NCBI GenBank assembly: GCA_017634065.1
Contig: JAGBOC010000011.1
Coordinates: 60,412-124,411 of the forward strand
Source of the DNA: Lachnospiraceae bacterium
Lineage (GTDB): Bacteria; Bacillota; Clostridia; Lachnospirales; Lachnospiraceae
DNA: 64,000 nucleotides
Direction of reading: 5' to 3'
Shown: piece after piece, positions 5,019 through 22,220 of the stretch
Layout of the letters: every line of letters starts with the position of its first letter
Position numbering within the stretch: the first letter of the stretch is position 1
The notes under the pieces: model-generated
What the model was told of the DNA's origin: nothing
What the model saw: only the letters and a program-made list of their open reading frames with translations
Databases searched by the model: none
Program-made: the position numbers and the translations under genes

Positions 5019-6635
5019 GTGCCAAAGAAGAATAAAAATGAAATAGAAATATCAAATGCCATGGATGAAAATGTGTTAAATGATAACACTTCTATATTAG
5101 ATTTGGATAATGATGAAACTAGTGCTAGTGAAGAAAAAAGTGTAAAGAAAAATACAAGTAAGAGGGTTAGTCAAAAAAGTAATTCAGTTAAAAAAACTAA
5201 GCTTACGAAATCCAAGGCAGTAAAGGCTAAAAGTACTGCAAAGACAAAAAGTAAAGTTTCTAAAAATACTAAAAAGAATAGCAGTAAACAAATTCGCAAG
5301 AAGAATGATGATATTTCAACATATAGATCAAGTAGCAAGAAAATAGAAGATGAACTTCTTAAAGTTACAAATATTAAGTCAATTGAGCAGATAAAAAAGC
5401 CAAGAAGGATTGCTCTGATGATTGCTTTTTATGCTGTCGTAGTCATAGGTATTTTAACTTTCATTCTTATAAGATTTAGCAAACCTAAAAAAACTAATTT
5501 GCTTCTTGAAGAGTCAATAAATTATGAGTTTCTGACAGAAGATACTACAAGTAAGAGAATAGTAGAAGAAAGTTCATCTGATAAGATGGATGAAGAGATT
5601 TTAGAAACTATAGATTATAGAGAAAGTTCAAGTGAGATAGAGACAAAGGAAGCAACAGAGAAAACGACAGAAAAAGTGACACAAAAAGCAACGGAAAAAG
5701 TGACAGAGAAGGCAACAGAGAAAGTAACGGAGAAAAAGACAGAAAGAGCTACAGAGAAAAAGATAGAAAAAACAACAGAGCGTAAGACAGAAAGCACGAC
5801 AGAGTCAGCTGACATAAGTAAGAGACTTATGGAACTTACTACAAAGTCAGCAGACTCATATAAGTTAGAGACAGTTGAGAGAGAGACGGAACCAACTATG
5901 AGAGCCTGGCCAGAGAGAAGAACTATCGCAGAAATATTACCAAGATATAAAGATGTGTTATACTCATATCCAACATTTTATCAGATGTCTCTCTCTGAAA
6001 TAGGAGTTATAAATACTGCTCTTACTGAAAATTATGGCATTGCAAAAAATAAACTGTGGGGTGAAGAGATTTCATTTGCAAATAAAGGCTCAAATGGTCT
6101 CGTCTATTTAAACTATACTTATCTTCAGCAATATATTGAAAATTATACAAGTTCCGTAAGACAAGACTATGACAAGCTTAAATTGGCACCATATTATAAT
6201 TATATTATGAATGACAAGTTTCGCTATGACTATAAGACTTATACTACTAATCTTCAATTGAAACTTGACTTTAAGAATGCAAAAAATCAAGGAATGTATT
6301 ATGAGATACCAGCTATTATTTATGAACCGGCTGGAACAAATGTCTCATCAAATGGTATAAATAGGATAGATGTGAGAGTGCTAAAAAAGGCTAAAGTAGG
6401 CTATACCGAGAGTTTTTCACTCACATCACTTCTAGAAGTTCTTGATATAGAATGTCATACTAAACATAATCCATTTTTTGACATAGAGGATGTGATAGGT
6501 ATGAATCCTAAAGCAGTTTCGGACATGATAGGCAGTGGTTTTGATGTCAGATCCTTGATAGAAGATGAGATATTTAACTATGTCTTATTTGACAAAAAAG
6601 GTTATATAACAGCGCTTTATATGCTTAAATCTTAA
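5019..6635 (+). CDS. Hypothetical membrane protein with Lys/Ser-rich N-terminus and TEK-repeat region
   Basis: GTG start. Basic low-complexity N-terminus, one TM ('IALMIAFYAVVVIGILTFILI'), tandem 'ATEKVTEK' repeats (about 5640-5800). Confidence 0.6.
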   Translation: MPKKNKNEIEISNAMDENVLNDNTSILDLDNDETSASEEKSVKKNTSKRVSQKSNSVKKTKLTKSKAVKAKSTAKTKSKVSKNTKKNSSKQIRKKNDDISTYRSSSKKIEDELLKVTNIKSIEQIKKPRRIALMIAFYAVVVIGILTFILIRFSKPKKTNLLLEESINYEFLTEDTTSKRIVEESSSDKMDEEILETIDYRESSSEIETKEATEKTTEKVTQKATEKVTEKATEKVTEKKTERATEKKIEKTTERKTESTTESADISKRLMELTTKSADSYKLETVERETEPTMRAWPERRTIAEILPRYKDVLYSYPTFYQMSLSEIGVINTALTENYGIAKNKLWGEEISFANKGSNGLVYLNYTYLQQYIENYTSSVRQDYDKLKLAPYYNYIMNDKFRYDYKTYTTNLQLKLDFKNAKNQGMYYEIPAIIYEPAGTNVSSNGINRIDVRVLKKAKVGYTESFSLTSLLEVLDIECHTKHNPFFDIEDVIGMNPKAVSDMIGSGFDVRSLIEDEIFNYVLFDKKGYITALYMLKS

Positions 6636-6717
6636 TAGTTTTTTAATATTTTAGAGAGCCAATTTGTTGATTTTTTGTTAATATTATTCTATACTAATAG
6701 ATAGTAAGAGGTGTGAT

Positions 6718-8574
6718 ATGATTAGAAAAGTTTATAATTTTATTATTGCGACTTTAGTGGCTATCATGATGGTGAGCCAGGTAAGTTTTGTATTTGCTGC
6801 AAATGAAAGAGAACTTACTGATGATGAGAAGGCAGCATTCATAGTCCGCGATGAGTGGACTTCTTGGGTTCGTGATTTTACCGCATCTCTTTCTGAACTT
6901 GATAAAAATGCGACATCTAAAATCTATGACAACATGGATTTCTATGATATGCAGTATAGATTTACTGAAAAGTATAAAAAAGTTCCTGAGTATCTTGATG
7001 AGGATGGAAAGCCAACTCAAAAACTTAAGGATATGATAAAGACAAAGAGAAAGGAACTTGCAGGAGCAACTATAAGAGATTATTTGTGCTTCACTTCAAA
7101 TGCAGCAGGTTCTAAAATCTCGTATGCAAAAACTGGGTCAGTGACAACTGATGGTCTTGGTATCTCAACTGATGGAGTTTCATTTGTTGCTTGGGATGGC
7201 TCTGAAAAGACTATAGGTTCAGGTGAAACATTATACATTGTAAATAAAAGAAACTCATTAAGTACTGGTAGTGCTAATTTTCTACACTTTAATATCACTG
7301 GTAATGTATCAGTATCTGGTGACATATCTTCTCTTATAAACTTTAGTGATATATCATCTTTTTCATTTTTTAATTTATTTTCTGGATGCACAGGGCTTAC
7401 TAATGCTGAAGATTTAGTGTTGTCAAAGACAGCTGTTTCTTCGTACAATGGTATGTTTTATAACTGCACTAATTTGACTAGACCACCTGTGTTGTCAGCA
7501 ACTAGTCTATCAGCAAGTTGCTACGATAGTATGTTTGCTGGTTGTACAAATTTAACTTCTGCACCAAAACTTCCTGCAACGACACTTGCTAACGCTTGCT
7601 ATAGAAATATGTTTTCTGCTTGTTCAAGTTTGACAACTGCACCAGATTTACCAGCAACAACATTAGCAAATTCTTGTTATCAAGGGATGTTTAATGGTTG
7701 CTCATCACTTAATTCTATATCACTTGAATGGGAAGGAAACTTCTCTGGTACAGGAGTACCTACAGATGCATTTACAAATTGGGTAAATGGTGTAGCTAAT
7801 AGTGGAACATTCTATTATAGTGGTAGTGCTGATTCTACAGCAGATTCATCATATGGTGCGAGTGCTATGCCTAAAAATAGCACTAATAAATGGACTATAG
7901 GCAGAAATGATTACCTCAGATTCATATCAAGAAAAAATGGGTCACAGGTTGGATACTCATTGCATAACTTAACACGAAATAATATATACTATTCAAAAGA
8001 TAGAGTAACTTGGACACAATGGAATGGTAATTATGTAACTATCGACAATGGTGAAACATTGTATGTACATAATCGTGATAACCAGTTAGCGACAAGTACT
8101 ACTCAGTGTTTAATTTTTAATATGCCAAATTCAGGAGAAATAGAGGTTGCGGGAAATATTATGTCACTTGCCAATTTTAATACTACAGTACCATCAAGTT
8201 GTTTTTATGGAGTATTTGCTGGGGATTCTGGAATTGGAGATGGTTGTGATGCACTTGTAGATGCATCATCTTTAAAATTACCAAGTGCCATTGCTGCTGA
8301 ATGTTATCGAGAAATGTTTAATGGTTGCCGAAGATTGGTATATGGGCCAACATTACCAGCAACAACATTGGCATCAAATTGTTATATGCGCATGTTTCAG
8401 AACTGTACTTCGTTAATTAGTATTAAGCTTGGCTATACTGGATCTTTTGATAACGCATATTTTGCAGGATGGGTTAATAATATTAATACAGTCGGTACAT
8501 TATACTACAATGGCACAGGAACAGTGCGTGGTGGCAATGGTATCCCAACCAACTGGTCAGTAGTAACATACTAG
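6718..8574 (+). CDS. Secreted BspA-like leucine-rich-repeat surface protein, internally duplicated
   Basis: Signal peptide 'LVAIMMVSQVSFVFA'. Repeated 'F.GC..LT..P.LPATTLA..CY..MF..C.SL' units in two half-molecule copies. Confidence 0.7.
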   Translation: MIRKVYNFIIATLVAIMMVSQVSFVFAANERELTDDEKAAFIVRDEWTSWVRDFTASLSELDKNATSKIYDNMDFYDMQYRFTEKYKKVPEYLDEDGKPTQKLKDMIKTKRKELAGATIRDYLCFTSNAAGSKISYAKTGSVTTDGLGISTDGVSFVAWDGSEKTIGSGETLYIVNKRNSLSTGSANFLHFNITGNVSVSGDISSLINFSDISSFSFFNLFSGCTGLTNAEDLVLSKTAVSSYNGMFYNCTNLTRPPVLSATSLSASCYDSMFAGCTNLTSAPKLPATTLANACYRNMFSACSSLTTAPDLPATTLANSCYQGMFNGCSSLNSISLEWEGNFSGTGVPTDAFTNWVNGVANSGTFYYSGSADSTADSSYGASAMPKNSTNKWTIGRNDYLRFISRKNGSQVGYSLHNLTRNNIYYSKDRVTWTQWNGNYVTIDNGETLYVHNRDNQLATSTTQCLIFNMPNSGEIEVAGNIMSLANFNTTVPSSCFYGVFAGDSGIGDGCDALVDASSLKLPSAIAAECYREMFNGCRRLVYGPTLPATTLASNCYMRMFQNCTSLISIKLGYTGSFDNAYFAGWVNNINTVGTLYYNGTGTVRGGNGIPTNWSVVTY

Positions 8575-8675
8575 TAAAAAAAATTATATATATATACAAA
8601 ATAATACTAATTCAAAAAAAATGCAGTGATTAAAGTTTCAAGTCTTTAGCATAAATTATTAAAAAAGGGGTAAAA

Positions 8676-8966
8676 ATGAAATCTTTAACAAAGAAAGTTT
8701 TAATAATAATTTTATCAGTCTTGATTATGGGGGCTCTCGCGGCTATCCCTGGTTTTGCAGAGACACAGGAAGAATTAAAACAAATATTTGTGACAAGAGA
8801 TGAAGTGAACCTTTGGATTAATGGCAATGGCTCACAGACAGGTATAAGTGAAGTTCTTGCTAACCTTGAAGTGAATATGCAACAACAAGTTCAGTCAAAA
8901 GTTAAGATAGAAATGTCAAAAAGAGGCATCAAAGATAAAGCAGAGACTACAACGACAGCACCATAA
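8676..8966 (+). CDS. Small secreted hypothetical protein
   Basis: RBS 'aaaggggt' upstream, signal peptide 'LIIILSVLIMGALAAIPGFA', followed by a terminator. Confidence 0.5.
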   Translation: MKSLTKKVLIIILSVLIMGALAAIPGFAETQEELKQIFVTRDEVNLWINGNGSQTGISEVLANLEVNMQQQVQSKVKIEMSKRGIKDKAETTTTAP

Positions 8967-8985
8967 TTTAAAAATATGGTTTATA

Positions 8986-9012
8986 AAGGGTGGCATATGT
9001 CACCCTTTTTTA
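8986..9012 (+). terminator. Rho-independent terminator
   Basis: 'aagggtg-gcatatgt-caccctt' followed by a T-run. Confidence 0.7.
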
Positions 9013-9091
9013 TTTTCATTTTTATGAATAGTCAATATAATTGAAAAGCAAGATAAAATATGCTATTATTATTAGCAGAGGTGAATTAGCA

Positions 9092-10174
9092 ATGCCAAAG
9101 ATTAGTAAAAAAAATAAATTGTCAATAATTGAAAGTGATAGTCAGGGGCTTGATGAGAGAAAAAGAGACATTTTAATAACTATTATAAAGTTATATTTAG
9201 ATACTGGAGAGCCAGTAGGCTCAAGAACTATAAGTAAACTTCCAGATATGGGCTTAAGCCCTGCAACTATAAGAAATGAGATGAGTGATCTTGAAGACCT
9301 TGGCTTTTTAATTAAACCACATACGTCAGCAGGTCGTATTCCTTCTGATAAGGGTTATCGTTTATATGTAAATAACCTAATGAAGGAAAAGGAAGTCGAG
9401 ATAAAAAATCTAAAGACAGAAATGACGGCAAGAGTTGACAAACTTGAAGATATGATGAAGACATTAGTTAAGACACTTGCTACAAATACAAATTATGCTG
9501 CCATGATAGCGGGACCTTCGGTGGATAATAACAAAATAAAGTATGTCCAGCTTTCAAATCTTGAAGATAAGAAGGTACTTGCGGTAGTCGTTGCTGAAGG
9601 AAATGTAGTTAAGACAAGAATAGTTGATTTTGACAAAATTATAGATGCAAAGGTTATACTTGATTTAAACCAAAATCTAAACAACATACTATCAGGGGTA
9701 AAAGTTTCAGACCTTGTATCAGATAAAATAAAATCTGAAATTAATAAATTAAAAAATAATAAAAATGAAATAAGTATCCTTATAAATGGCATAAAAGAAT
9801 CATTTGAAGAAAAAGATACTTCTGACAATATCTGGACATATGGTTCAAATAACTTTTTCCGCTATAAGGAATTTGAAGAGTCTGGAAATGTCAAAGATTT
9901 GGTTGAGACATTTGAGCAGAAGAAGGACTTAAAGAAACTTGTTGATAAGGTCAATGAGGAAAACACAGAGACAGGATTAAGGGTCTATATAGGAGAAGAA
10001 TCGTCAGTAAATGCTATGAAAGACTGCTCCGTAGTCACAGCTAATTGTGATTTTGGAAATGGTATGAGAGGGACGATAGGTGTAGTAGGACCGAAGAGAA
10101 TGGATTATGAGAAGGTGCTTAAAACTATAAAGAACACTATGATAAATATCAATAAAGAGTTAACTAATAAATAA
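9092..10174 (+). CDS. hrcA: Heat-inducible transcription repressor HrcA
   Basis: 'LDERKRDIL..II..Y...GEPVGSRTISK' winged-helix N-terminus, length about 360 aa. Start set at ATG 9092 (MPKISKK). Confidence 0.85.
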   Translation: MPKISKKNKLSIIESDSQGLDERKRDILITIIKLYLDTGEPVGSRTISKLPDMGLSPATIRNEMSDLEDLGFLIKPHTSAGRIPSDKGYRLYVNNLMKEKEVEIKNLKTEMTARVDKLEDMMKTLVKTLATNTNYAAMIAGPSVDNNKIKYVQLSNLEDKKVLAVVVAEGNVVKTRIVDFDKIIDAKVILDLNQNLNNILSGVKVSDLVSDKIKSEINKLKNNKNEISILINGIKESFEEKDTSDNIWTYGSNNFFRYKEFEESGNVKDLVETFEQKKDLKKLVDKVNEENTETGLRVYIGEESSVNAMKDCSVVTANCDFGNGMRGTIGVVGPKRMDYEKVLKTIKNTMININKELTNK

Positions 10175-10813: not shown

Positions 10814-10879
10814 TAAGTTGTAAAGTTAAAACTTTGTAATTATTAAAAGCAAAAAATCATTCTATTTTGTATCATAATA

Positions 10880-11009
10880 AGTTGAAAAGTAGCCAGAATT
10901 TGTGCAAAAAATAGCAAAATATCATCCAGATTTATGTCAAAATTAGTTAAAACATCGTCCGAATTTGTGTCAAAATTAGTTGAAAAGTCGTCCGAATTTG
11001 TGTATAATC
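10880..11009 (+). repeat. Four tandem ~32-33-nt promoter-like direct repeats
   Basis: Units begin at 10880, 10913, 10945 and 10978. Consensus is about AGTTGAAAAGTCGTCCGAATTTGTGTCAAAATT. Confidence 0.85.
10980..11008 (+). promoter_or_regulatory. Consensus sigma-A-type promoter within the last repeat unit
   Basis: TTGAAA (10980-10985), 17-nt spacer, TATAAT (11003-11008), 8 nt before the ATPase ATG region. Confidence 0.6.
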
Positions 11010-11015
11010 AGGAGT

Positions 11016-12314
11016 ATGAAAAGAGAAATATTAGAAAAACTAGCTAATTGGAAGAATAGTAAAAATAGAAAGCCCTTGATTCTGAATGGTGCGAGGCAAG
11101 TTGGAAAGACCTATATACTTAAAGAGTTTGGGGCAAAATACTTTGATAATGTTTGCTATATAGACTTTAGTAGTAATGAGAGTTACAAAAATATTTTTGA
11201 AAAAGATTTTAATATTGAGCGAATAATTACTGAATTTAATGCAATTACTTCAACAAAAATAATGAGAGGCAAAACTCTTATTATTTTGGATGAAATACAA
11301 GAGGCTCCAAGAGCAATTACTTCGCTAAAATATTTTTGCGAAAATGAAAATGAATATGTAGTTGCATGTGCAGGTTCATTACTTGGAGTTGCAATACATA
11401 AAAATACATCATTTCCAGTTGGAAAAGTAAACTTAATGACAATGTTTCCTCTGACATTTATTGAGTTTTTAGAAGCAATGGGCAAAGAAGGATTAGCAAA
11501 ATTGCTTCAAGATGGCAATTACGAGAGTATAAATGATTTATCAGAAGATTATAATGCACTTCTAAAACAATATATAATAGTTGGAGGAATGCCAGAAGTT
11601 GTAAAGGAATTTGTAGAGAACAAAGATTTTACAGAAGTAAGAAATATACAAAAAGAAATTCTTAAAATGTATGATAATGATTTTAGTAAACACATAATTA
11701 ATCAAAATGAGTTATTAAAAACAAGGCAGGTGTTTACTACAATTCCAAGAGAATTAGCAAAAGAAAATAAAAAGTTTGTTTTGAGAGATATGGAGAAAGG
11801 TGCGAGACTCTCAAAATATGAAGTTGCTATTCAATGGCTTGTTGATGCTGGTGTGGTTTACAAAATACACAATGTTGATAAAATTGGAATACCACTATCT
11901 GCTTATAAAAAAATGGAAAACTTCAAAATCTATTTAGTCGATGTAGGATTATTAGGTGCAATGAGCAATCTTGATTATGCAGTGATTATTGAAGAAAATA
12001 GATTATTTGTTGAATTTAAAGGTGCACTAGCAGAACAATATATTTGTCAGGAATTAATGTATAGGTATCAAGATGAATTGTTTTTTTATTCAGATAGCAA
12101 ATCTGAAATGGAAGTAGATTTTATGATTCAGTCAAGAAATGAGCCTATCCCAATAGAAGTTAAATCAGGCAGTGTAGTTCAAGCAAAAAGTTTAAAACAA
12201 TATATAAAGAAGTATAAACCAAGTTATGCAGTTAGATTTAGTTTACTTAAGAACAAATATGATGAAACTATAAAAAATTATTCACTTTGGTCGGTGCCGA
12301 ATCAAATATTATAA
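11016..12314 (+). CDS. AAA+ ATPase with C-terminal DUF4143 / PD-(D/E)xK-like module
   Basis: Walker A 'GARQVGKTY', Walker B 'LIILDEIQ', C-terminal 'EVDFMI....PIPIEVKSG'. Start at ATG 11016 behind 'ggag'. Confidence 0.8.
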   Translation: MKREILEKLANWKNSKNRKPLILNGARQVGKTYILKEFGAKYFDNVCYIDFSSNESYKNIFEKDFNIERIITEFNAITSTKIMRGKTLIILDEIQEAPRAITSLKYFCENENEYVVACAGSLLGVAIHKNTSFPVGKVNLMTMFPLTFIEFLEAMGKEGLAKLLQDGNYESINDLSEDYNALLKQYIIVGGMPEVVKEFVENKDFTEVRNIQKEILKMYDNDFSKHIINQNELLKTRQVFTTIPRELAKENKKFVLRDMEKGARLSKYEVAIQWLVDAGVVYKIHNVDKIGIPLSAYKKMENFKIYLVDVGLLGAMSNLDYAVIIEENRLFVEFKGALAEQYICQELMYRYQDELFFYSDSKSEMEVDFMIQSRNEPIPIEVKSGSVVQAKSLKQYIKKYKPSYAVRFSLLKNKYDETIKNYSLWSVPNQIL

Positions 12315-12353
12315 ATATAAATTGTTAGATAAAACATTAAAGGGGAAATAATT

Positions 12354-13131
12354 ATGGATATGTTAGCAAAATATAAAGTAGTAGCAAAAAGATACGAGGA
12401 TATGCTTATGAATACTGAAGGCGCTTTAGGCGTAATGCACCTGGGGGGGGGTGGCAAGAGAACGCGCTGATGAACATTCTGACATTGACATTGCTGTATT
12501 TTCTTATGACAAACTTGATATTAAAGAAGGAGAGCAATTATCTGAAGAAGGATATGATGTTGAAATTTTTAATATTTGCATAAATAAAGGATTTGATGAC
12601 TGGGATCCTATCAAAAAAGAAGCATATGCTGAAGGAATTATTGCAAGAGATACAAATGGTATTGTTAAAGACTTTATGGATAAAGCTCTTTTTTATGACG
12701 AAGAGTTTAGATGTAGGTATTTAGCAAAAAATATATTTGATATTGCTTGGCACGGTTGGATTTATACACCATTTAGGAATCAAAATGTAAAAGGATATAA
12801 TTGGATTTTGCCAAATAACTTATGGCATCAAAGAGGAGAAATAAGTAATGATTACTATTTAACGAATTGGTGTATCAATAGTTTTATAGAATTGTTATTT
12901 GTAGTAAATAGAAAGTGGACTCCTGATTTTAAATGGAGATGGATTCGCTCTTGTCACTTAGAAAAATTACCAAGTAATTATAAAGAAAATATGAGTTATT
13001 TATTGTTTGAACCTTGGAATGAAGATACTTGGCTACAAAAGGGAAAGGTTTTCCAAAGGATGATTGATGAAGTAATACCGATGGTAATTGATGACATGCC
13101 TGAAGACTGGTATAACTTATTGGAGCACTAA
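12354..13131 (+). pseudogene. Pol-beta-type nucleotidyltransferase-domain gene interrupted by a +1 frameshift at a G9 tract (or phase-OFF state)
   Basis: ATG 12354 with RBS 'aagggg'. The frame stops at TGA 12468. The downstream frame (ORF 12451..13131) reads 'ARERADEHSDIDIAVF'. Removing one G from G9 (12443-12451) fuses them to '...GALGVMHLGGVARERADEHSDIDIAVF'. Confidence 0.75.
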
Positions 13132-13149
13132 TAGTTGAATGGAGTTTAT

Positions 13150-16100
13150 ATGGAAACAAATAAAGTATTCATTTCTCATCAACATAATAATGATGATATA
13201 GCAAATAAAGTTTTGTCAGCATTAGAGAATAGTGGTTTAGAGTGTTTTGTTGATCATATGCATATTCCTGACGGTAAGAATTGGAGTGACAGAATTGAAA
13301 AGGAATTAACCGAATGCAAATATTTTATTTTGATAAACTCTGAATATACTGTAGGGTCAAATGGTTGTTATGTTGAATTAGATAGAGCAAAACAAGCAAA
13401 AAAACAAATTATTATATTAAAACTTGGCGACTTCAAGGAAGATTATAAGTGGGACGTTTTGCTTACTGCAGTTCAGGTGACACAAATTACAGAAGATAGA
13501 GTATATGATATTGTCAAGAATAAAGTTGTACCTAGTTTCATAGGGTCACAGCAAAAAAATGAAGTAAATAAAATGACCATAGATGAGTTTAACAATGTAG
13601 AGATTGATAAACTGAAAAACGATTCTTCTGAAACATATTTGAGAACATCTTTTAATGATTTTGTTGATTTAGCAATTAAGGGAAATGAGAGATTATCAAT
13701 TATTAAATATAAACAAAATTGTGAGTATGAAGATAATCTATACACAAAATTAATAAATATAAAGAATGATGAAGTAAAATTCATCTATTGCAACTCAATA
13801 GCATCTGTTGATTTATCAATTAATTTGATTGCTGAACAAAAACAGGAAGAGGTTTATTATTTATTTATAAAGAGCATTAATGAAATTGATGGACTAAATA
13901 AGATACATAGCTTAATTCAGAATCATAAAAATATAAACTTTATAATTGGAATTAATTTAGAATCATGGATAGATTTTAATAACGAATTTAATGATGCCAG
14001 GTGTCTTGTTTTTGATAAAATGTCTAATAAAGAAACGATAGAATATTTAAAACAGTTAGAAAAGGAAGAAGGGCTAAATATAGGTGGCAATTTACAAACA
14101 ATATTTTTGTTACCAGCGCTTCATGATTTTAGGACTCCAAAGTTACTAAAGATTATTATTAATTACATAAAGAAAAATTATTCGTCTTACAATGATTCGG
14201 ATTTTAATTTGACAGATATTTTTGATTTTTATGATAAATATTTAGAAACCAATGTTAAAGCAAATGAAGCATTTGAAGAATTGATTAGTATTGCTATAAA
14301 AAAGAAATTCAATGTTTTTACTCTTACAGAATTTGCAGATAATAAAAATGTATTATTCGAGAATGAATTAGTGACAAAAAAGGGGATTAATTATAAAATA
14401 GGAAATGAAGAGTATTTTCTACATAGAGTTGCTATGCATATTTTTACAACATATGGTTCTAATTACGAGGAATCATCAGTATTAGCAATAAAGGATTCTA
14501 TTCCTTATTATATATATTTATATTATAGCGAAACTCATGAATTAATACTCGACAAATTTAAATTGGATGAGCAAAATATTAGTAAACTATTACAATTATT
14601 CATTAGTGAGGAAGAAGCATTTACTAGTATAGTTTTATCAAGAAAATATGACACAGAAATTGTAAAACTGCTAAATGAAATTAATGAAAAAGGATTGTAT
14701 AATATTTCTGAAAGAATAATTAGTATTTTTGAAAAAGAAGGTATAGACCCAAGTGAAGAACTTGATTATTTATCTGCTAAAATTGAGATGCATTATAATA
14801 TGACAGATGAATTACTTGAAACTGATGCTGAATTTGGTAATGTATTGGCTGAAAAGGCGTATATTTGTTATCAAACAGATAATTTTACTAAAGCAGGTGA
14901 ATTATTTGATAAAGCAATTGACAAAATGCTTGATGCAAATCAAACTAATTATAAACTTATATTTAATTATATAGAGTATCTATTTGATTTTGGTGACTAT
15001 AACAAAATTGAAGAATTACTTAATTATGTAGATAATGAAGACATTAAGTCAAGTGATGACTTGCTAATTAAGTATTATTATAGTCAGGCTGAATTAGATG
15101 GATATCGTTTGGAGATAGATTCATGCCTTTATAATTTAGAGAAATGCATATCTTTGTGCGAAAAGAATGTCAATATTGGTAAAATGCAGATTTATTATGG
15201 TGAAAAAGGATATTACTTAATGCTTAAAGGTAAATATGACGAATCTAAAAGATATAGTAGAATTAATTTGGAAATAGCAAAATCTTTAGGTAATTTTAAT
15301 GGAATGGTGGTGGCATCTATTAATCTTGCAATGTGCGAGTTAGCTTTACAAAACTTTGAACAAATGTATAAGTTAGTTTCATATGCCTTAGTATATGCAA
15401 AAAATGTTAGAAATTACTGGAGATATAGCGAGAGTTTTATGTATCTGTTACTATTGATAAAGGACAAGGATAAATTAGAAAACATTGATGAAATAATACC
15501 AAATGTAGATTCTGATATATTTAGAACATATATATATTTGTTATATTCATATTATTACTATATAAAAAAAGATATAGCACTTGCTAAAGAAAAAATTAAT
15601 ATTGCTATAAATTATTCAAATCAGATTGAAAATGTACAATTAAAAGAGATGGTAAAGGCATGGTCTAATTACATAAGCACTGAAAAAGTTGGAAATATTG
15701 ACAATGAGTTAAGACAATATATGAATGATGTGATTGAATCATTAAATGCTTTAAGAATTGAAGAAAAAACATTTACTTTGCCACTAGAGTTTTATTTGTA
15801 TAAAGAACTAAATAGTGAACGACTAAAATATAGAATTATGAAAATTTCTGATATACCAGATATATTTGAATATTCTAGTAATAGTGAATGTACTAAATAT
15901 GTATTATTTGATAAGCACAAATCTTTTAATGATACTGCAAAGTTTGTTGCAAATGTATATGATGAAAATAATACTGGAACATATATGTGTTGGGCAGTAG
16001 AGCATAGAGAAGACAAGAAAGTTATTGGCACAATTGATTTGATATTAAGTGAAAGATATAATGAAATAGAAATAGGATATATATTTAATAAGAATTATTG

Positions 16101-16320
16101 GAGAAAAGGTTACGGAAGAGAGTCAGTAAAGACAATCGTTGACTATTGTAAAAATTGTTTGGGGCTCAAAAGTTTATTAGGTGTTGCTTTTGAAGTAAAT
16201 GAAGGATCAAGAAAATTGTTAGAATCTACAGGTTTTGTTGAATTTGAAAAAATAGAAAATTATCATAATAAAATATTACTTAAATCAAAAAATGGTGTAG
16301 CATACAGGCTTTTATTATAA
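13150..16320 (+). CDS. TIR-domain - helical/TPR scaffold - GNAT acetyltransferase fusion protein (1,056 aa)
   Basis: N-terminus 'KVFISHQH...GLECFVDHMHIPDGKNWSDRIEKEL.ECKYFILINS......GCYVELDRA' (TIR_2-like). C-terminus 'IGYIFNKNYWRKGYGRESVKTIVDYC...EVNEGSRKLLESTGF' (RimJ/RimL-type GNAT). No Walker A seen. Start at ATG 13150 after 'ggag'. Confidence 0.75.
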   Translation: METNKVFISHQHNNDDIANKVLSALENSGLECFVDHMHIPDGKNWSDRIEKELTECKYFILINSEYTVGSNGCYVELDRAKQAKKQIIILKLGDFKEDYKWDVLLTAVQVTQITEDRVYDIVKNKVVPSFIGSQQKNEVNKMTIDEFNNVEIDKLKNDSSETYLRTSFNDFVDLAIKGNERLSIIKYKQNCEYEDNLYTKLINIKNDEVKFIYCNSIASVDLSINLIAEQKQEEVYYLFIKSINEIDGLNKIHSLIQNHKNINFIIGINLESWIDFNNEFNDARCLVFDKMSNKETIEYLKQLEKEEGLNIGGNLQTIFLLPALHDFRTPKLLKIIINYIKKNYSSYNDSDFNLTDIFDFYDKYLETNVKANEAFEELISIAIKKKFNVFTLTEFADNKNVLFENELVTKKGINYKIGNEEYFLHRVAMHIFTTYGSNYEESSVLAIKDSIPYYIYLYYSETHELILDKFKLDEQNISKLLQLFISEEEAFTSIVLSRKYDTEIVKLLNEINEKGLYNISERIISIFEKEGIDPSEELDYLSAKIEMHYNMTDELLETDAEFGNVLAEKAYICYQTDNFTKAGELFDKAIDKMLDANQTNYKLIFNYIEYLFDFGDYNKIEELLNYVDNEDIKSSDDLLIKYYYSQAELDGYRLEIDSCLYNLEKCISLCEKNVNIGKMQIYYGEKGYYLMLKGKYDESKRYSRINLEIAKSLGNFNGMVVASINLAMCELALQNFEQMYKLVSYALVYAKNVRNYWRYSESFMYLLLLIKDKDKLENIDEIIPNVDSDIFRTYIYLLYSYYYYIKKDIALAKEKINIAINYSNQIENVQLKEMVKAWSNYISTEKVGNIDNELRQYMNDVIESLNALRIEEKTFTLPLEFYLYKELNSERLKYRIMKISDIPDIFEYSSNSECTKYVLFDKHKSFNDTAKFVANVYDENNTGTYMCWAVEHREDKKVIGTIDLILSERYNEIEIGYIFNKNYWRKGYGRESVKTIVDYCKNCLGLKSLLGVAFEVNEGSRKLLESTGFVEFEKIENYHNKILLKSKNGVAYRLLL

Positions 16321-16338
16321 TTAAGTTGTATGGTAAAG

Positions 16339-16464
16339 GTTAGAACAACCATTGTAGGGTCGAAGATTAGAACAACCATTGTAAGTGTGAAAATTAGAGC
16401 AACCATTGTAAGTGCGAAAATTAGAGAACCATTGTAGGGGCGAAGGTTTCCGAGCCCGAAAGGA
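16339..16464 (+). repeat. Tandem 27-nt repeat array ending in a GTAG-type element and CCCGAAAGGA
   Basis: Exact 27-nt periods at 16339, 16366 and 16393. Fourth unit (16420-) ends 'gtaggggcgaaggtttccgagcccgaaagga', 4 nt before the xpt ATG. Confidence 0.9.
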
Positions 16465-16468
16465 AAAT

Positions 16469-17044
16469 ATGCAAGAGTTAAAAGAAAAAATCTTAAAAGA
16501 AGGTAAGATTTGTCCAAATGATATAGTGAAAGTTGACTCATTTCTCAATCATCAAGTCGATGTTCACTTTCTAAAAAAAATTGGACAGGAGTTTAAGAAG
16601 AGATTTGAAGGAGCAGAGGTTAGTAAGGTTTTGACTATAGAATCTTCTGGCATAGCTATAGCTTGTTATACAGCGGAGGCATTTGACTGCAGACTTGTAT
16701 TTGCGAAAAAAGGTGTATCGCTTAATCAATCAGAGGATTTTTATGAGTCAAAAGTATTTTCTTATACAAGAAGAGAAGAGTATCCTATAAGAGTTTCAAA
16801 AGAGTTTTTAGGTAAAGATGATAAGGTTTTAGTCATAGATGATTTCCTTGCAAATGGAGCGGCACTTAATGGACTTATAGATATAGTGAAAAAATCAGGT
16901 GCTACCCTTGTCGGATGTGGAACTGTCATAGAAAAAGGATTTCAACCAGGTGGTAAAAGTTTAAGAGAAAAAGGCATAAGAGTTGAGTCACTTGCAATCA
17001 TTGAATCGACAGATGAAGTTAATCAGAAAATTACATTTCGTTAA
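16469..17044 (+). CDS. xpt: Xanthine phosphoribosyltransferase
   Basis: 'VKVDSFLNHQVD', 'TIESSGIA', 'VLVIDDFLANG', 'VIEKGFQPG'. Closely matches my recollection of Bacillus Xpt along its whole length. Confidence 0.93.
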   Translation: MQELKEKILKEGKICPNDIVKVDSFLNHQVDVHFLKKIGQEFKKRFEGAEVSKVLTIESSGIAIACYTAEAFDCRLVFAKKGVSLNQSEDFYESKVFSYTRREEYPIRVSKEFLGKDDKVLVIDDFLANGAALNGLIDIVKKSGATLVGCGTVIEKGFQPGGKSLREKGIRVESLAIIESTDEVNQKITFR

Positions 17045-17113
17045 TTATTAGTAAAAGAGAACTTCATAAACATATTTGTAATGTTTATTACTTATGAGTT
17101 CAAGAGGTGAATC

Positions 17114-18531: not shown

Positions 18532-18621
18532 GGAGATAGGAGGGTAGCTGGTGCGCCCCGCGGTCTTCAACACCGTTGTGAAAGTTAAACTTTCGGCTAG
18601 GTTCGATTCCTAGCGTCTCCG
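18532..18621 (+). tRNA. selC: tRNA-Sec (anticodon UCA)
   Basis: Anticodon stem-loop 'gcggt-CTTCAAC-accgt' with TCA at 18667-offset-free position 18567-18569. Long variable arm 'gaaagt-taa-actttc'. T-arm 'ctagg-ttcgatt-cctag'. Sits directly upstream of selA. No encoded CCA. Acceptor pairing is imperfect, so the ends are +/- 2 nt. Confidence 0.85.
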
Positions 18622-18666
18622 TTTATTAATTAGTTGAGACCAAAGAAAATTAGTAATCTATTTTAG

Positions 18667-18694
18667 AGTTCTTTGGTTTCAAAGAACTTTTTTA
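18667..18694 (+). terminator. Rho-independent terminator after selC
   Basis: 'agttctttg-gttt-caaagaact' followed by T6. Confidence 0.75.
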
Positions 18695-18742
18695 TTTATA
18701 AGAGTTATAAAAAGAGGTCAAAGTATCATTTAGTTTTAAATT

Positions 18743-20134
18743 ATGGAAAAGAATGAAATCTTAAGAAAAATCCCACAAGTTGATGAAATCCTTAAAGATA
18801 AGGAGCTATCTTCTATTGTAGAGAATACGCCACATGATTTTCTAACTAATTGTATAAGAGAAGTCATAGTTGACACAAGAGCAAATGTTTTAAATGGCAT
18901 AGAGAAAGATATAGATAGAAAAAAACTGATAGAAAGAATTGTTTCTAAAGTAGAAAAGAAATCAAAACAGAGTTTAAGAAGAGTTATAAATGCAACTGGC
19001 ACAGTCCTTCACACAAATCTTGGAAGGTCGGTTATATCAAAGTCTGCTACAGAAGCAATGATAAATGTCGCATATAATTATTCAAATCTTGAATATGATT
19101 TAAGGCATGGTGAAAGAGGCGATAGACAATCGCACATAGAAAAGTTAATTATGGAACTTACTGGTTGTGAGTCAGCAATGGTTGTAAATAACAATGCTGC
19201 AGCCACTATTATCACTCTTGCCACACTTGCTTATGAGAAAGAAGTAATAATTTCAAGAGGTGAACTTATAGAAATTGGTGGTTCTTTTAGAATACCTGAT
19301 GTAATGTCAGAAAGTAGAGCTATTCTAAAAGAAATTGGCACGACAAATAAGACAAAAATATCTGATTATAAAAAAGCATTTGATGAAGAAAAAACTGCCG
19401 CAATAATGAAAGTACATACGAGTAATTATAAAGTAGTAGGTTTTACTGAAGAAGTGAAATTAAAAGAACTCATGCCACTTGGTCGTGAATATAGTATTCC
19501 TGTAATATACGATATGGGAAATGGACTCTTTGTTGACTTAAATGAATACGGCATTGATGAACCAACTGTTCCTAATCTTGTGAAAGAGGATGCAGATGTG
19601 ATACTTTTTAGTGGCGACAAACTTCTTGGAGGCCCTCAAGCAGGAATCATAATCGGTAAGGCAAAGTATATTGATAAGATGAAGAGACATCCTCTTGCAA
19701 GAGCATTTAGAGTTGACAAGTTTACTATTGCTGCTCTTTCTGCTACTCTTTTTGAATACTATGATGTAAAGAGAGCAAAGAAAAATATACCAATTTTGCA
19801 AATGATTACATGCAGTAAAAAAGAACTAAAAGTTAAAGCTGAAAAAATAGCTGAAATGTTAAAAGCAAAAGTTAATGAAGAAGTCACTATAGATGTAGAA
19901 GATATAAAAGACCAAGTAGGTGGTGGAACTGCACCAGATGTATTCCTTGATGGATATGCAGTAACTATCATTTCAAAGAAAATTGCATCAGAAAAGATTG
20001 AAAGACAACTTCGCTCTCTTGATGTGCCAATCATAGTCAGAGTGGCACACGATAAGATATATGTTGACATAAGAACAGTTATGGAAGAAGACATTGAATT
20101 ATTAGTCAATGAACTTTTGAAAACACTACGATAA
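18743..20134 (+). CDS. selA: L-seryl-tRNA(Sec) selenium transferase
   Basis: 'RVINATGTVLHTNLGR', 'FSGDKLLGGPQAG' (PLP-lysine block), 463 aa. Confidence 0.93.
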   Translation: MEKNEILRKIPQVDEILKDKELSSIVENTPHDFLTNCIREVIVDTRANVLNGIEKDIDRKKLIERIVSKVEKKSKQSLRRVINATGTVLHTNLGRSVISKSATEAMINVAYNYSNLEYDLRHGERGDRQSHIEKLIMELTGCESAMVVNNNAAATIITLATLAYEKEVIISRGELIEIGGSFRIPDVMSESRAILKEIGTTNKTKISDYKKAFDEEKTAAIMKVHTSNYKVVGFTEEVKLKELMPLGREYSIPVIYDMGNGLFVDLNEYGIDEPTVPNLVKEDADVILFSGDKLLGGPQAGIIIGKAKYIDKMKRHPLARAFRVDKFTIAALSATLFEYYDVKRAKKNIPILQMITCSKKELKVKAEKIAEMLKAKVNEEVTIDVEDIKDQVGGGTAPDVFLDGYAVTIISKKIASEKIERQLRSLDVPIIVRVAHDKIYVDIRTVMEEDIELLVNELLKTLR

Positions 20135-20151
20135 ATAACTTCAACTCAACC

Positions 20152-20256
20152 GTAGGGGTGAGCACTGCGAACCAGAGTGTAGATGTGAGCATTGCGAGTT
20201 AAATGTAGTGGTGAGCACTTTGAACCAATTGTAGGGGTGAGCACTGCGAACCCGAA
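20152..20256 (+). repeat. Four tandem GTAG-type units (periods 27, 26, 26 nt) filling the selA-selB spacer
   Basis: GTAG at 20152, 20179, 20205 and 20231. The outer units are intact 'gtaggggtgagcactgcgaacc', the inner two degenerate. Confidence 0.9.
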
Positions 20257-20264
20257 AAATATAT

Positions 20265-22220
20265 ATGCAAAATATAATTATAGGAACAGCAGGTCATGTG
20301 GATCATGGCAAGACCTTTCTAATCAAAGCTCTTACAGGTTTTGACACAGACCGCTTAAAAGAAGAAAAGAAAAGAGGCATAACCATAGAAAATGGCTTTG
20401 CGAATCTCCCAAATGATTTAGGACTTCATTTGGGAATTATTGATGTTCCTGGACATGAAAAGTTTGTAAAGAATATGCTTGCAGGTATAGGCGGGATTGA
20501 TTTGGTACTTCTCGTCATATCACTTGAAGAAGGTATAAAGCCACAGACTATAGAACATTTTGAAATCATAAAATCACTTGGTATAAAGAAAGGCATCATT
20601 GTATTTACGAAACTTGATAGCGAGAATATAGTTGATTTTGATACATTAAAAAGTCAAGTGAAAGATTTAGTGAAAGGCTCTAACCTTGAAAATGCAAAAA
20701 TCATACCTGTGTCAAGTTTAACTGGTAAGAATATAGATGTTCTGAAAGAAGAGATATTTTCTCTTGTGAAAGAGATTGGCGAAAGAAATAGCAATAAGGA
20801 ACTTACAAGACTTCCTATAGATAGAGTATTTACTATGGAAGGCTTTGGGACAGTTATTACTGGTACTTTGATGGAAGGAAAAATAGACACTGGCGATGAA
20901 CTTATGGTGTATCCTTCACAAAAAATAGTTAAGGTTAGACAAATTCAGTCGCATGGAAGTGTAGAACCATCAGCACTTGCAGGTCAGAGAACAGCAATTA
21001 ATTTACTAAATGTGAAAAAAGAAGAACTTAATCGAGGAGATGTCCTCGCAACTAAATCTTCTATAATACTAAGTGAGATGATAGACTGCAAAGTGACAAT
21101 GTTTAAGTCTGCAAAGAGAAAACTAAAAAATGGCGAAAGAGTTCATTTTAATTATGGGTCAAAGCAGACAGAAGCAAATGTAAAAGTCATAAGTGATGAG
21201 TATGTGCAGTTTAAGTTTGAATCCCCTATACCAATAAAAAGAGATGACAAATATATTATAAGATTCATAAGTCCAGCTGAAACCTGCGGTGGAGGCATAG
21301 TTTTAAATATTGCCACTAAAAGATATAAGATGGAAGATGGCATTGCACTCAACCATTTTAAGGCACTTGATGGCAATGATGACAAAAGTATACTTCTTGA
21401 GATGATAAATGACTCAAGTGTTGATTTCCCAGACCCAGTTTTTTTGTCAAAGAAAATGAACCAGGGGCTAAAGGATATAAAAGAAATCTTAAAGCAACTT
21501 TTAGGTACTGATAGCATTGAAGTAATCAATCCAACAAGGTCTAAAAATGAAGAGATAAATGATAATGCAATCATACTTTCACATAAGTTTTATGAGGGAG
21601 CAAAAAAATATATACTTGATATACTAAATAAATATCATAGGGAGAATCCTATATCAAAGGGCTTAAAAAAGGAAGAATTAAAGAGCATATTATTTAAGAG
21701 ATATAATAAAGTTGGCGACACAAAACTTGAAGATTTACTCAATTATATGATAGGTAAAAATGTGCTAAAGCAAATAGATGACCTTATTTCTTCATTTGAA
21801 TTTGATGCAGTTCTTGATGATAAAAAATCAAAAGAAAAAATCGCGATTGAGAAAAAATATCTTGATGCTTCGTATAATGTCCCACTTACTCAAGATGTAG
21901 TTACGGAGTTTTCTACTATAAAAGATGGCAAGAATAATAAACTTGAGATAAGACAGATGATAGTTGATTTAGCAAAAGAAGGAAAACTCATAAAACTTTC
22001 AAATGATTACTACATTCATAAAGATAATTTTGATAAAGTTTTAGCAGTAGTAGATAAACTTTTTGAAAATAGTGATAGGATAACAATGACAGAACTTCGT
22101 GATAAACTTGAAACTTCAAGAAAATATGCTATACTTATCATAGATTATCTGGATCAGAAGAGAATAACAAAACTTGCTGGAGAATATAGAATGAAAGGAG
22201 ATAGATATGGCAAAGTATAA
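20265..22220 (+). CDS. selB: Selenocysteine-specific translation elongation factor
   Basis: G-domain 'GTAGHVDHGKT', 'DVPGHEKF', 'TKLD'. Long winged-helix C-terminal extension, 651 aa, adjacent to selA. Confidence 0.93.
   Translation: MQNIIIGTAGHVDHGKTFLIKALTGFDTDRLKEEKKRGITIENGFANLPNDLGLHLGIIDVPGHEKFVKNMLAGIGGIDLVLLVISLEEGIKPQTIEHFEIIKSLGIKKGIIVFTKLDSENIVDFDTLKSQVKDLVKGSNLENAKIIPVSSLTGKNIDVLKEEIFSLVKEIGERNSNKELTRLPIDRVFTMEGFGTVITGTLMEGKIDTGDELMVYPSQKIVKVRQIQSHGSVEPSALAGQRTAINLLNVKKEELNRGDVLATKSSIILSEMIDCKVTMFKSAKRKLKNGERVHFNYGSKQTEANVKVISDEYVQFKFESPIPIKRDDKYIIRFISPAETCGGGIVLNIATKRYKMEDGIALNHFKALDGNDDKSILLEMINDSSVDFPDPVFLSKKMNQGLKDIKEILKQLLGTDSIEVINPTRSKNEEINDNAIILSHKFYEGAKKYILDILNKYHRENPISKGLKKEELKSILFKRYNKVGDTKLEDLLNYMIGKNVLKQIDDLISSFEFDAVLDDKKSKEKIAIEKKYLDASYNVPLTQDVVTEFSTIKDGKNNKLEIRQMIVDLAKEGKLIKLSNDYYIHKDNFDKVLAVVDKLFENSDRITMTELRDKLETSRKYAILIIDYLDQKRITKLAGEYRMKGDRYGKV

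Follow-up and report, generated by a model that had tools for sequence, protein, structure and literature searches.

The 64,000-nucleotide stretch of a Lachnospiraceae genome analysed here (the window) carries on its forward strand a gene for a 1056-aa protein (13150..16320), in which a TIR domain, a degenerate STAND core, a TPR-like solenoid and a GNAT acetyltransferase domain are joined in one chain, and just upstream of it a gene for a nucleotidyltransferase (NTase) of the KNTase/ANT(4') fold (12354..13131, + strand), which is frameshifted in the window. We propose that these two genes make up an undescribed and rare, horizontally mobile anti-phage abortive-infection system of the NLR/Avs-like type, a reading to which we assign a probability of roughly 0.55. 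The family is best classed with STAND/Avs-type receptors, among which it is unusual in its dead P-loop, in a GNAT domain at the C-terminus and in a KNTase-fold enzyme as obligate and probably phase-variable partner.

The large gene occupies an uninterrupted open reading frame (ORF) at 13135..16320 (+). Its probable start is the ATG at 13150, which has a GGAG just 5' of it, and the homologues all start with ME[TK]NK. An exact-sequence look-up identified the product as NCBI MBO6119189.1 from a Lachnospiraceae metagenome-assembled genome, where it is labelled only as a 'GNAT family N-acetyltransferase' and its partner as a 226-aa hypothetical protein; our analysis corrects both entries. A preliminary description of this DNA, made from its letters, had read the protein as a TIR, helical/TPR and GNAT fusion. 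Every peptide string quoted there occurs in the protein, and the 1056-aa protein as described from sequence is confirmed to be real. Word search gave six homologues, and a profile of the middle region, run with HMMER against 1.84 billion representatives, gave about 25 cluster representatives with the entire scaffold, beyond which there were TPR-level matches only, hundreds of them TPR-only matches at profile positions 520-660. The family alignment used throughout comprises 26 proteins, namely the window protein and 25 relatives. Three scaffold relatives (P0018, P0022 and P0023) apparently lack the GNAT domain, some of them perhaps being truncated predictions; a metagenome scan for P0022, made to see whether an NTase accompanies it, gave no match. 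Another relative, P0009 (1427 aa), carries some 360 extra residues after the GNAT domain, with a weak Acetyltransf_7 match at residues 1306-1352.

Pfam and an AlphaFold2 (AF2) model together gave the domain order: TIR_2, then a nucleotide-binding domain (NBD), helical domain (HD) and winged-helix domain (WHD), then TPR and finally GNAT. The model has a mean predicted local distance difference test score (pLDDT) of 71 and a predicted template-modelling score (pTM) of 0.45. Its best Foldseek match in the PDB is the STAND-TPR protein 6mfv (E 2.6e-10 over 730 aligned columns); Avs4 (8dgf), EfAvs5 (9jap), many TPR proteins and RimJ-like GNATs are also listed, all with low template-modelling (TM) scores because the global model is poor.

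Between the TIR and GNAT domains, the model runs from a beta-alpha-beta sandwich (residues 165-310) through a helical stretch (313-385) and a winged helix (396-435) into an alpha-solenoid (440-870). From the AF2 core, Foldseek and the family alignment we assigned a degenerate STAND NBD to residues ~165-310 (13642..14079, +). The HD and WHD follow at residues ~311-445 (14080..14484, +), as judged from the 6mfv alignment and from modelled secondary structure with helices at 313-385 and 396-404, strands at 408-411 and 414-417 and a helix at 420-435. A TPR-like alpha-solenoid, the presumed sensor, takes up residues ~446-880 (14485..15789, +); it was assigned from AF2 helices, from Foldseek matches that include LGN, APC/C and other TPR proteins, and from TPR_12, which Pfam matched below threshold at residues 685-738 and which is present in 25 of the 26 members. 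Local confidence is higher than the global score, with a pLDDT of 65-88 along the NBD-HD-WHD succession and 75-94 in the solenoid helices.

The nucleotide-binding motifs of this core are degenerate. At the Walker A position the window protein reads KYKQNCEYEDNLY, and at the Walker B position YYLFIKS, with Lys replacing Asp. Pattern searches for GxxxxGK[ST], the relaxed [AG]xxxxG[KR][STQ] and GK[ST] found none anywhere in the window protein and none at the P-loop position of the 25 relatives, and the Walker A lysine is missing in all 26 aligned members. Distant members show GxxGxG[VI][ST] at the Walker A position (GQSGAGVST, GESGSGVSN and GKKGIGIST, for example), and by our own reading of the alignment the Asp of the Walker B hhhhD motif is retained in 15 of the 26; in the window's branch the Walker A glycines and the Walker B Asp are both gone. 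The distant members also gave consistent sub-threshold matches to nSTAND3, nSTAND_NTPase5 and AAA_14 at the NBD (E 5e-4 to 0.04). No Pfam STAND, NACHT or NB-ARC model reached threshold with the window protein, and an NBD profile searched against PDB sequences returned nothing significant, the best match being the RFC small subunit (E 0.34). With 10-32% identity in the per-domain comparison, the NBD is the least conserved domain of the large protein. From the alignment and the fold model we concluded that residues ~165-445 are to be read as a decayed STAND NBD-HD-WHD, a putative pseudo-NTPase rather than a non-NTPase, in which NTP hydrolysis has almost certainly been lost while the fold has been kept. 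The preliminary description had recognised a STAND-like layout without a P-loop, and both the modelled succession and the pattern searches bear this out; its 'helical/TPR scaffold' stands as regards the TPR solenoid and fails in so far as it made the region merely helical.

A functional Avs protein with degenerate Walker motifs, KpAvs8, has been reported (PMC13581612), and the family shares this trait with it. With Avs4, EfAvs5 (a SIR2-STAND protein) and KpAvs8, the family has in common an exchangeable N-terminal effector, an NBD-HD-WHD core and a C-terminal TPR-like sensor, and the window module shares with Avs/NLR-like receptors a location in a defence island. It differs from Avs/NLR STAND proteins in that the Walker A lysine is absent throughout the family, and the whole motif together with Walker B in the window branch, and also in that a GNAT domain follows the TPRs and a KNTase-fold gene accompanies the large gene as obligate partner.

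The TIR_2 domain covers residues 6-94 (13165..13431, +). Pfam matched PF13676 with an E value of 4.4e-16 and 59.9 bits against a cut-off of 28, in agreement with the N-terminal TIR_2 call made earlier, and PADLOC models for ThsB and Aga_TIR matched as well. Glu76, whose GAA codon was checked in the sequence at 13375-13377 (+), lies in the motif CYVEL. Independent phmmer alignments paired it with the motif Glu of SPARTA TIR-APAZ (KEL, residue 77 by our own count), Cat1 (WCWDEL) and AbTir (WTEYEL), residues which we take to be catalytic. After L-INS-i realignment the column is Glu in all 22 TIR-bearing family members (22/22). A first MAFFT alignment had put Asp78 at the catalytic position; this candidate was rejected after the three independent pairwise alignments and the realignment. 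The claim that the glutamate in 'GCYVELDRA' occupies the catalytic position of NAD+-consuming TIR domains therefore holds at the level of sequence, and cleavage of NAD+ is predicted from it.

The N-terminus is variable across the family: TIR_2 is found in 20 of the 26 members, HD-CE in P0015 and SMEK_N in P0020, and N-termini of unassigned type also occur. The SMEK_N domain of P0020 matches the REase effector of short-pAgo systems. Within the window branch (the window protein, P0002 and P0003) the TIR_2 domain is shorter and SPARTA/Cat1-like, and since it is only ~20% identical to the TIR domains of other members, this branch may have undergone a TIR-for-TIR replacement. The N-terminus behaves as an exchangeable effector slot for TIR, HD-CE and SMEK_N/REase-like domains, which is a hallmark of Avs/NLR-like effector positions. 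SPARTA, Cat1, AbTir and Thoeris ThsB share the TIR_2 fold and the aligned Glu with the large protein; in contrast to SPARTA, Cat1 and Thoeris, the window system has no pAgo, CARF or ThsA-type partner. For Thoeris in particular, no ThsA-type gene (SIR2/SLOG, macro or transmembrane) was found in the window island, where matches were at TIR level only, and the likeness to known TIR systems ends at the TIR domain (NCBIfam ThcB4 gave 39 bits against a cut-off of 220).

At the other end of the chain, residues 891-1030 form a GNAT domain (15820..16239, +), as indicated by Pfam, PDB and Foldseek matches and by per-domain identity. Acetyltransf_3 (PF13302) matched over profile positions 1-138 of 138 with an E value of 6.6e-24 and 85.6 bits against a cut-off of 25.4, so that the RimJ/RimL-type GNAT of the preliminary description is well founded. 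The motif A G-x-G is kept as G987-Y988-G989, and G987, Y988 and N1017 are invariant in the seven closest homologues. PDB sequence matches were 3fbu, 6vfm and 3igr, and Foldseek matches 2fck, 3fbu, 2fsr and 3eo4. The full-length PF13302 match and the likeness in sequence (3fbu, 6vfm, 3igr) and fold (2fck) ally the domain with RimJ/RimL/SpeG GNATs, from which it differs in its attachment behind 880 residues of an immune-receptor-like chain. A link to tRNA-acetylating toxins had also been implied, and this was not sustained: the domain is RimJ/RimL/SpeG-like, no toxin-family model in NCBIfam matched it and no RHH/DUF1778 antitoxin gene is adjacent. TacT, AtaT and ItaT are small stand-alone GNATs, whereas this one ends a chain of 1056 aa, and nothing points to kinship with them. 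No other domain of the large protein is as well conserved (30-54% identity).

The NTase gene is an obligate neighbour of the large gene, and the 'single-polypeptide' label given to the system earlier has to be abandoned. The partner had been overlooked because a G9 frameshift breaks it in the window. It adjoins the large gene in all of the ~12 lineages examined, its product measuring 256-259 aa; in the window, as in each of the six homologues from the word search, it is upstream, at a distance of 2-22 nt. Three further lineages have an NTase 52-57% identical to the window's, each followed by a TIR-TPR-GNAT gene of ~1070 aa, which either overlaps the NTase gene by 8 nt or starts 4 nt beyond it. 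A JGI scan added NTases at least 56% identical that are followed by a TIR-scaffold gene, with TIR-NBD-TPR-GNAT order wherever the contig suffices (L023-L028); the contig of L022 ends too early to show the gene after the NTase. In one locus (L021), SMEK_N replaces TIR, the large protein is ~20% identical to that of the window, and the NTase is 51% identical and sits downstream instead of upstream. The NTase has thus evolved far more slowly than the large protein. Because this TIR-less variant keeps the NTase, the partnership is with the scaffold/GNAT part and not with TIR chemistry, and modification of a TIR product by the NTase was rejected as a general mechanism for the same reason.

Assignment of the NTase rests on Pfam, AF2, Foldseek and its neighbourhoods. 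NTP_transf_2 scored 22 bits (cut-off 21), and the DUF4037 match stayed below threshold. The catalytic G[GS] and DxD residues (G31, G32, D43 and D45) do not vary among 32 homologues, and the C-terminal domain is aromatic-rich and strictly conserved. The AF2 model has a pLDDT of 96.8, and Foldseek gave TM scores of 0.57-0.63 to 1kan, 6nmk and 1kny, within 0.5-0.63 for 4ebk and of ~0.5 for LinB. The Hailong protein HalB was matched with an E value of 1e-5 (TM 0.33-0.40), MntA-HepT complexes were among the weaker matches, and the MntA sequence model gave 17-25 bits against a cut-off of 60. DUF4037 is known as the C-terminal domain of aminoglycoside nucleotidyltransferases, HEPN-related and inactive (PMC3710099). 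With ANT(4')/KNTase and LinB the partner shares the two-domain NTP_transf_2 plus KNTase_C/DUF4037 fold and the G[GS]...DxD active site; it differs from ANT(4'), LinB and HalB in sequence (11-15% identity) and in being found only beside the pseudo-STAND-GNAT gene. MntA-HepT pairs a minimal NTase antitoxin with a HEPN toxin; the window NTase instead carries its own inactive-type DUF4037, and no separate HEPN gene as expected for such a type VII toxin-antitoxin system was found at the locus. More remote DUF4037 NTases, at 21-26% identity, are found as stand-alone genes; their unrelated contexts (peptidase M3, DUF763, dockerin) are uninformative on function.

The frameshift falls in a G9 homopolymer (12443..12451, +) that covers the codons of the G[GS] catalytic loop (HLGGV). 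The +1 shift makes the N-terminal NTase fragment stop at 12468-12470 and leaves an ORF of 226 aa from GTG 12451; with one G removed, a 258-aa NTase results that is identical to P0155 at 257 of 258 residues. Tract length differs within the species: L007, with an intact gene, has G8, the window and L015 have G9, L016 has G10 and L017 has G12. Independent samples contributed several different variants to the 90% cluster, some broken at 226 aa and others intact at 258 aa. The G9 tract is the sole G/C run of at least eight in the window, and in relatives at 73% identity it is interrupted (AGGTGGAAT). From these lengths, the NTase is likely to be switched ON and OFF in this species by slipped-strand phase variation. 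In the window, L015 and L016, where it is OFF, the contigs show an unbroken large ORF over the length they cover; the NTase is hence unlikely to be an indispensable antitoxin.

Both genes lie in a variable insertion of 6.3 kb and four genes (10814..17109), whose blastn breakpoints against the insertion-free locus L018 (~80% nucleotide identity) are 10813 and 17110. In L018, hrcA and a HAD gene are followed after ~98 nt by an FAD oxidoreductase gene, and the window insertion is placed between the latter two. It contains, in order, an AAA_14/DUF4143 gene (PDC-S01), the NTase gene, the TIR-pSTAND-GNAT gene and xpt, and its G+C content is low at 25-29%. This empty site, the defence genes near other family loci and the exchangeable N-terminal effector accord with the defence-island logic put forward earlier. 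The claim that no named system matches also held in the collections searched: with PADLOC-DB v2 and NCBIfam only the TIR domain of the large protein was matched and the module was absent, and full-text literature searches for TIR, GNAT, STAND and NTase combinations did not find the architecture described.

Based on this architecture and setting, we infer a defence function in which the TIR domain would be the terminal NADase effector. The large protein would have descended from a STAND NTPase, and an infection cue would be sensed by its TPR solenoid, perhaps aided by the GNAT domain at the C-terminus. Sensing would trigger oligomerisation, presumably without ATP hydrolysis since the P-loop is dead, and this would gather the TIR domains, form the NADase site around Glu76 and deplete NAD+. 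The NTase, as obligate partner, would act with the scaffold/GNAT part, making or modifying a ligand or nucleotidylating the receptor, and in this species it would be toggled ON and OFF by poly-G slippage. Accessory NTases control effectors in Hailong, Clover and Panoptes, and inhibitory signals made by an NTase have precedent (PMC12265719). We consider a positive or licensing role of the NTase most likely here.

Several observations weigh against this proposal. The family is rare, its link to defence comes from a handful of neighbourhoods, and no member was found among phages, plasmids, IMG/VR or GTDB representatives. The tract lengths all come from metagenome assemblies and could partly reflect assembly or sequencing error, and the AF2 model falls below a pLDDT of 50 at residues 65-82, around Glu76. 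GNAT and NTase are the most conserved parts, which would not be expected of mere accessories to a TIR effector, and the model leaves their roles unexplained. This last point would fit an arrangement, which we regard as unlikely, in which these two form the functional toxin/regulator core: the GNAT would arrest growth by acetylating a translation component or another host target, the NTase would control it by nucleotidylation after the logic of MntA-HepT, and TIR, SMEK_N and HD-CE would be auxiliary or second effectors. The GNAT is indeed far better conserved than the NBD, the NTase keeps 51% identity where large proteins share ~20% and stays with the scaffold and GNAT once the TIR has been replaced, and its N-domain is weakly MntA-like in sequence and among the weaker Foldseek matches. 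Such a core is, however, hard to reconcile with an NTase that is frameshifted in several strains or samples while the GNAT-bearing ORF is intact, which ill fits an essential antitoxin, with a GNAT that is RimJ/SpeG-like and unlike TacT/AtaT-type toxins, and with three relatives apparently devoid of GNAT (some maybe truncated); effectors of the STAND family, moreover, are normally N-terminal.

A nucleotide signal offers another way to join the two genes, and one that we think rather improbable: the NTase would make a nucleotide or nucleotidylated ligand, for which the dead NBD pocket or the CoA-binding GNAT would serve as reader and which would license or restrain the receptor, much as in Hailong, Clover and Panoptes; the arming state would depend on phase variation. 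The HalB-like fold, the invariant catalytic residues, the strictly conserved aromatic C-terminal domain and the precedent of inhibitory signals argue for it, and the lysine-less P-loop of distant members, with its glycines, could hold a different ligand. An inhibitory signal, on the other hand, predicts that OFF variants are auto-toxic, yet OFF is common, and the best structural matches are small-molecule O-nucleotidyltransferases (ANT(4') and LinB), not oligonucleotide synthases. It is similarly doubtful that the family represents a new NLR-like class in which ATP has been replaced as licensing cofactor by a nucleotide moiety that the conserved KNTase-fold enzyme makes or attaches, with the dead NBD or the CoA-binding GNAT as its reader and the whole under stochastic ON/OFF control by the poly-G tract on the NTase catalytic loop. 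Very improbable, in our view, is a non-immune unit that modifies xenobiotics or antibiotics or has a regulatory task, combining an ANT-like adenylyltransferase with an AAC-like acetyltransferase and using its TIR for protein interaction only. It would account for an NTase fold closest to aminoglycoside and lincosamide nucleotidyltransferases and for the DUF4037 domain (PMC3710099), and the island does hold a genuine xpt gene. Aminoglycoside acetyltransferases also belong to the GNATs. It would leave unaccounted for the conserved TIR glutamate, the nuclease-like or HD-like domains that replace TIR in some members, a TPR sensor that evolves fast next to a conserved NTase, and the defence or mobile genes nearby; the NTase is only 11-15% identical to resistance enzymes, NCBIfam gave it no resistance-family match, and for the large protein the sole match of this kind was ArsN1, far below threshold at 12.4 bits against a cut-off of 170.

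Should the two genes prove to be a working defence system, they would provide a STAND/NLR-like family that lacks the Walker A lysine throughout, which would bear on whether NLR-type assembly requires nucleotide binding. They would also be the first case found of a GNAT and a KNTase-fold NTase built into a STAND/NLR-like receptor, hinting that immune signalling or regulation may include steps of acetylation or nucleotidylation not described so far, and would place homopolymer phase variation on the accessory enzyme of a TIR system in a gut member of the Firmicutes.

As regards distribution, the plasmid matches that tblastn gave for the large protein were confined to the GNAT domain, the scaffold region had no match in phages, and the NTase had none in the plasmid, phage or IMG/VR collections. 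Among 185,579 GTDB species-representative genomes no family member was found, the only match being an unrelated GNAT in Rossellomorea. Genes near family loci encode SLFN/AlbA, a separate TIR_2 protein, GNATs, RelB-PIN, Bro-N and an integrase; other loci lie near Cas1, near integrases and AAA_21, or beside a PNP_UDP_1 gene. The last is the nucleoside phosphorylase family gene at L021 294-1052, 85 nt upstream of the SMEK_N-pSTAND-GNAT variant. PNP_UDP_1 domains serve as effectors in other defence systems.

A conserved third gene was also considered and rejected as part of the core, as its three candidates are mutually unrelated and absent from the window. One, a protein of 607-619 aa for which N-terminal transmembrane helices are predicted and neither Pfam nor PADLOC gave a match, is encoded just before the NTase (L009 6145-8004 and L011 6165-7988, 41% identical to each other). 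Its gene runs 4 nt into the NTase gene in L009 and stops 12 nt short of it in L011, and the protein could be an optional third component or an effector. Another, of 696 aa with a weak RyR match (E 0.005), follows the large gene in relatives at 73% identity (L001 13334-15424 and L006 4315-6405), and the third is an 875-aa metallophosphoesterase downstream of the large gene in L002. In L001, a relative at 73% identity, genes for a 362-aa TIR_2 protein and a 182-aa GNAT protein lie 4 nt apart directly upstream of the NTase (7525-9166). The split TIR is 28% identical to that of the fused protein over 95 aa and the split GNAT is not specifically related; the pair may be an analogous system.

Immediately upstream of the module, the AAA_14 plus DUF4143 ATPase gene (10980-12314, +) matched PDC-S01, a single-gene candidate system in PADLOC, with an E value of 5.6e-169. 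L007, L015 and L016 have it inserted along with the module too, but elsewhere it is unlinked to the family. The fourth gene of the insertion encodes the xanthine phosphoribosyltransferase Xpt (16469-17044, +; NF006671, 258.7 bits against a cut-off of 177), and no purine riboswitch 5' of it matched Rfam at the gathering threshold. Two tandem-repeat arrays flank the defence genes, with 4.7 copies of a 33-nt unit in the gap between HAD and AAA_14 (10851-11003) and 4.1 copies of a 27-nt unit in that between the large gene and xpt (16336-16445). Copy number of the 27-nt array seems variable: in L007, which is 99% identical, the spacer is ~27 nt (one unit) shorter, and exact core matches number one as against three in the window. 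A scan of the island for promoters and terminators found fewer promoter-like sites than in shuffled sequences and one weak terminator inside a gene.

Beyond the insertion, the window holds a complete selenocysteine insertion set, in which tRNA-Sec (Rfam RF01852, 50.1 bits) is followed by selA and selB (18532-22220, +). Conservation against L018 along the syntenic block is lowest (73-75% identity, patchy) upstream of hrcA, where two large ORFs of 538 and 619 aa are found (5019-8571, +); of their copies in L007, that of the 538-aa ORF had no Pfam match and that of the 619-aa ORF a faint match to LRR_5.

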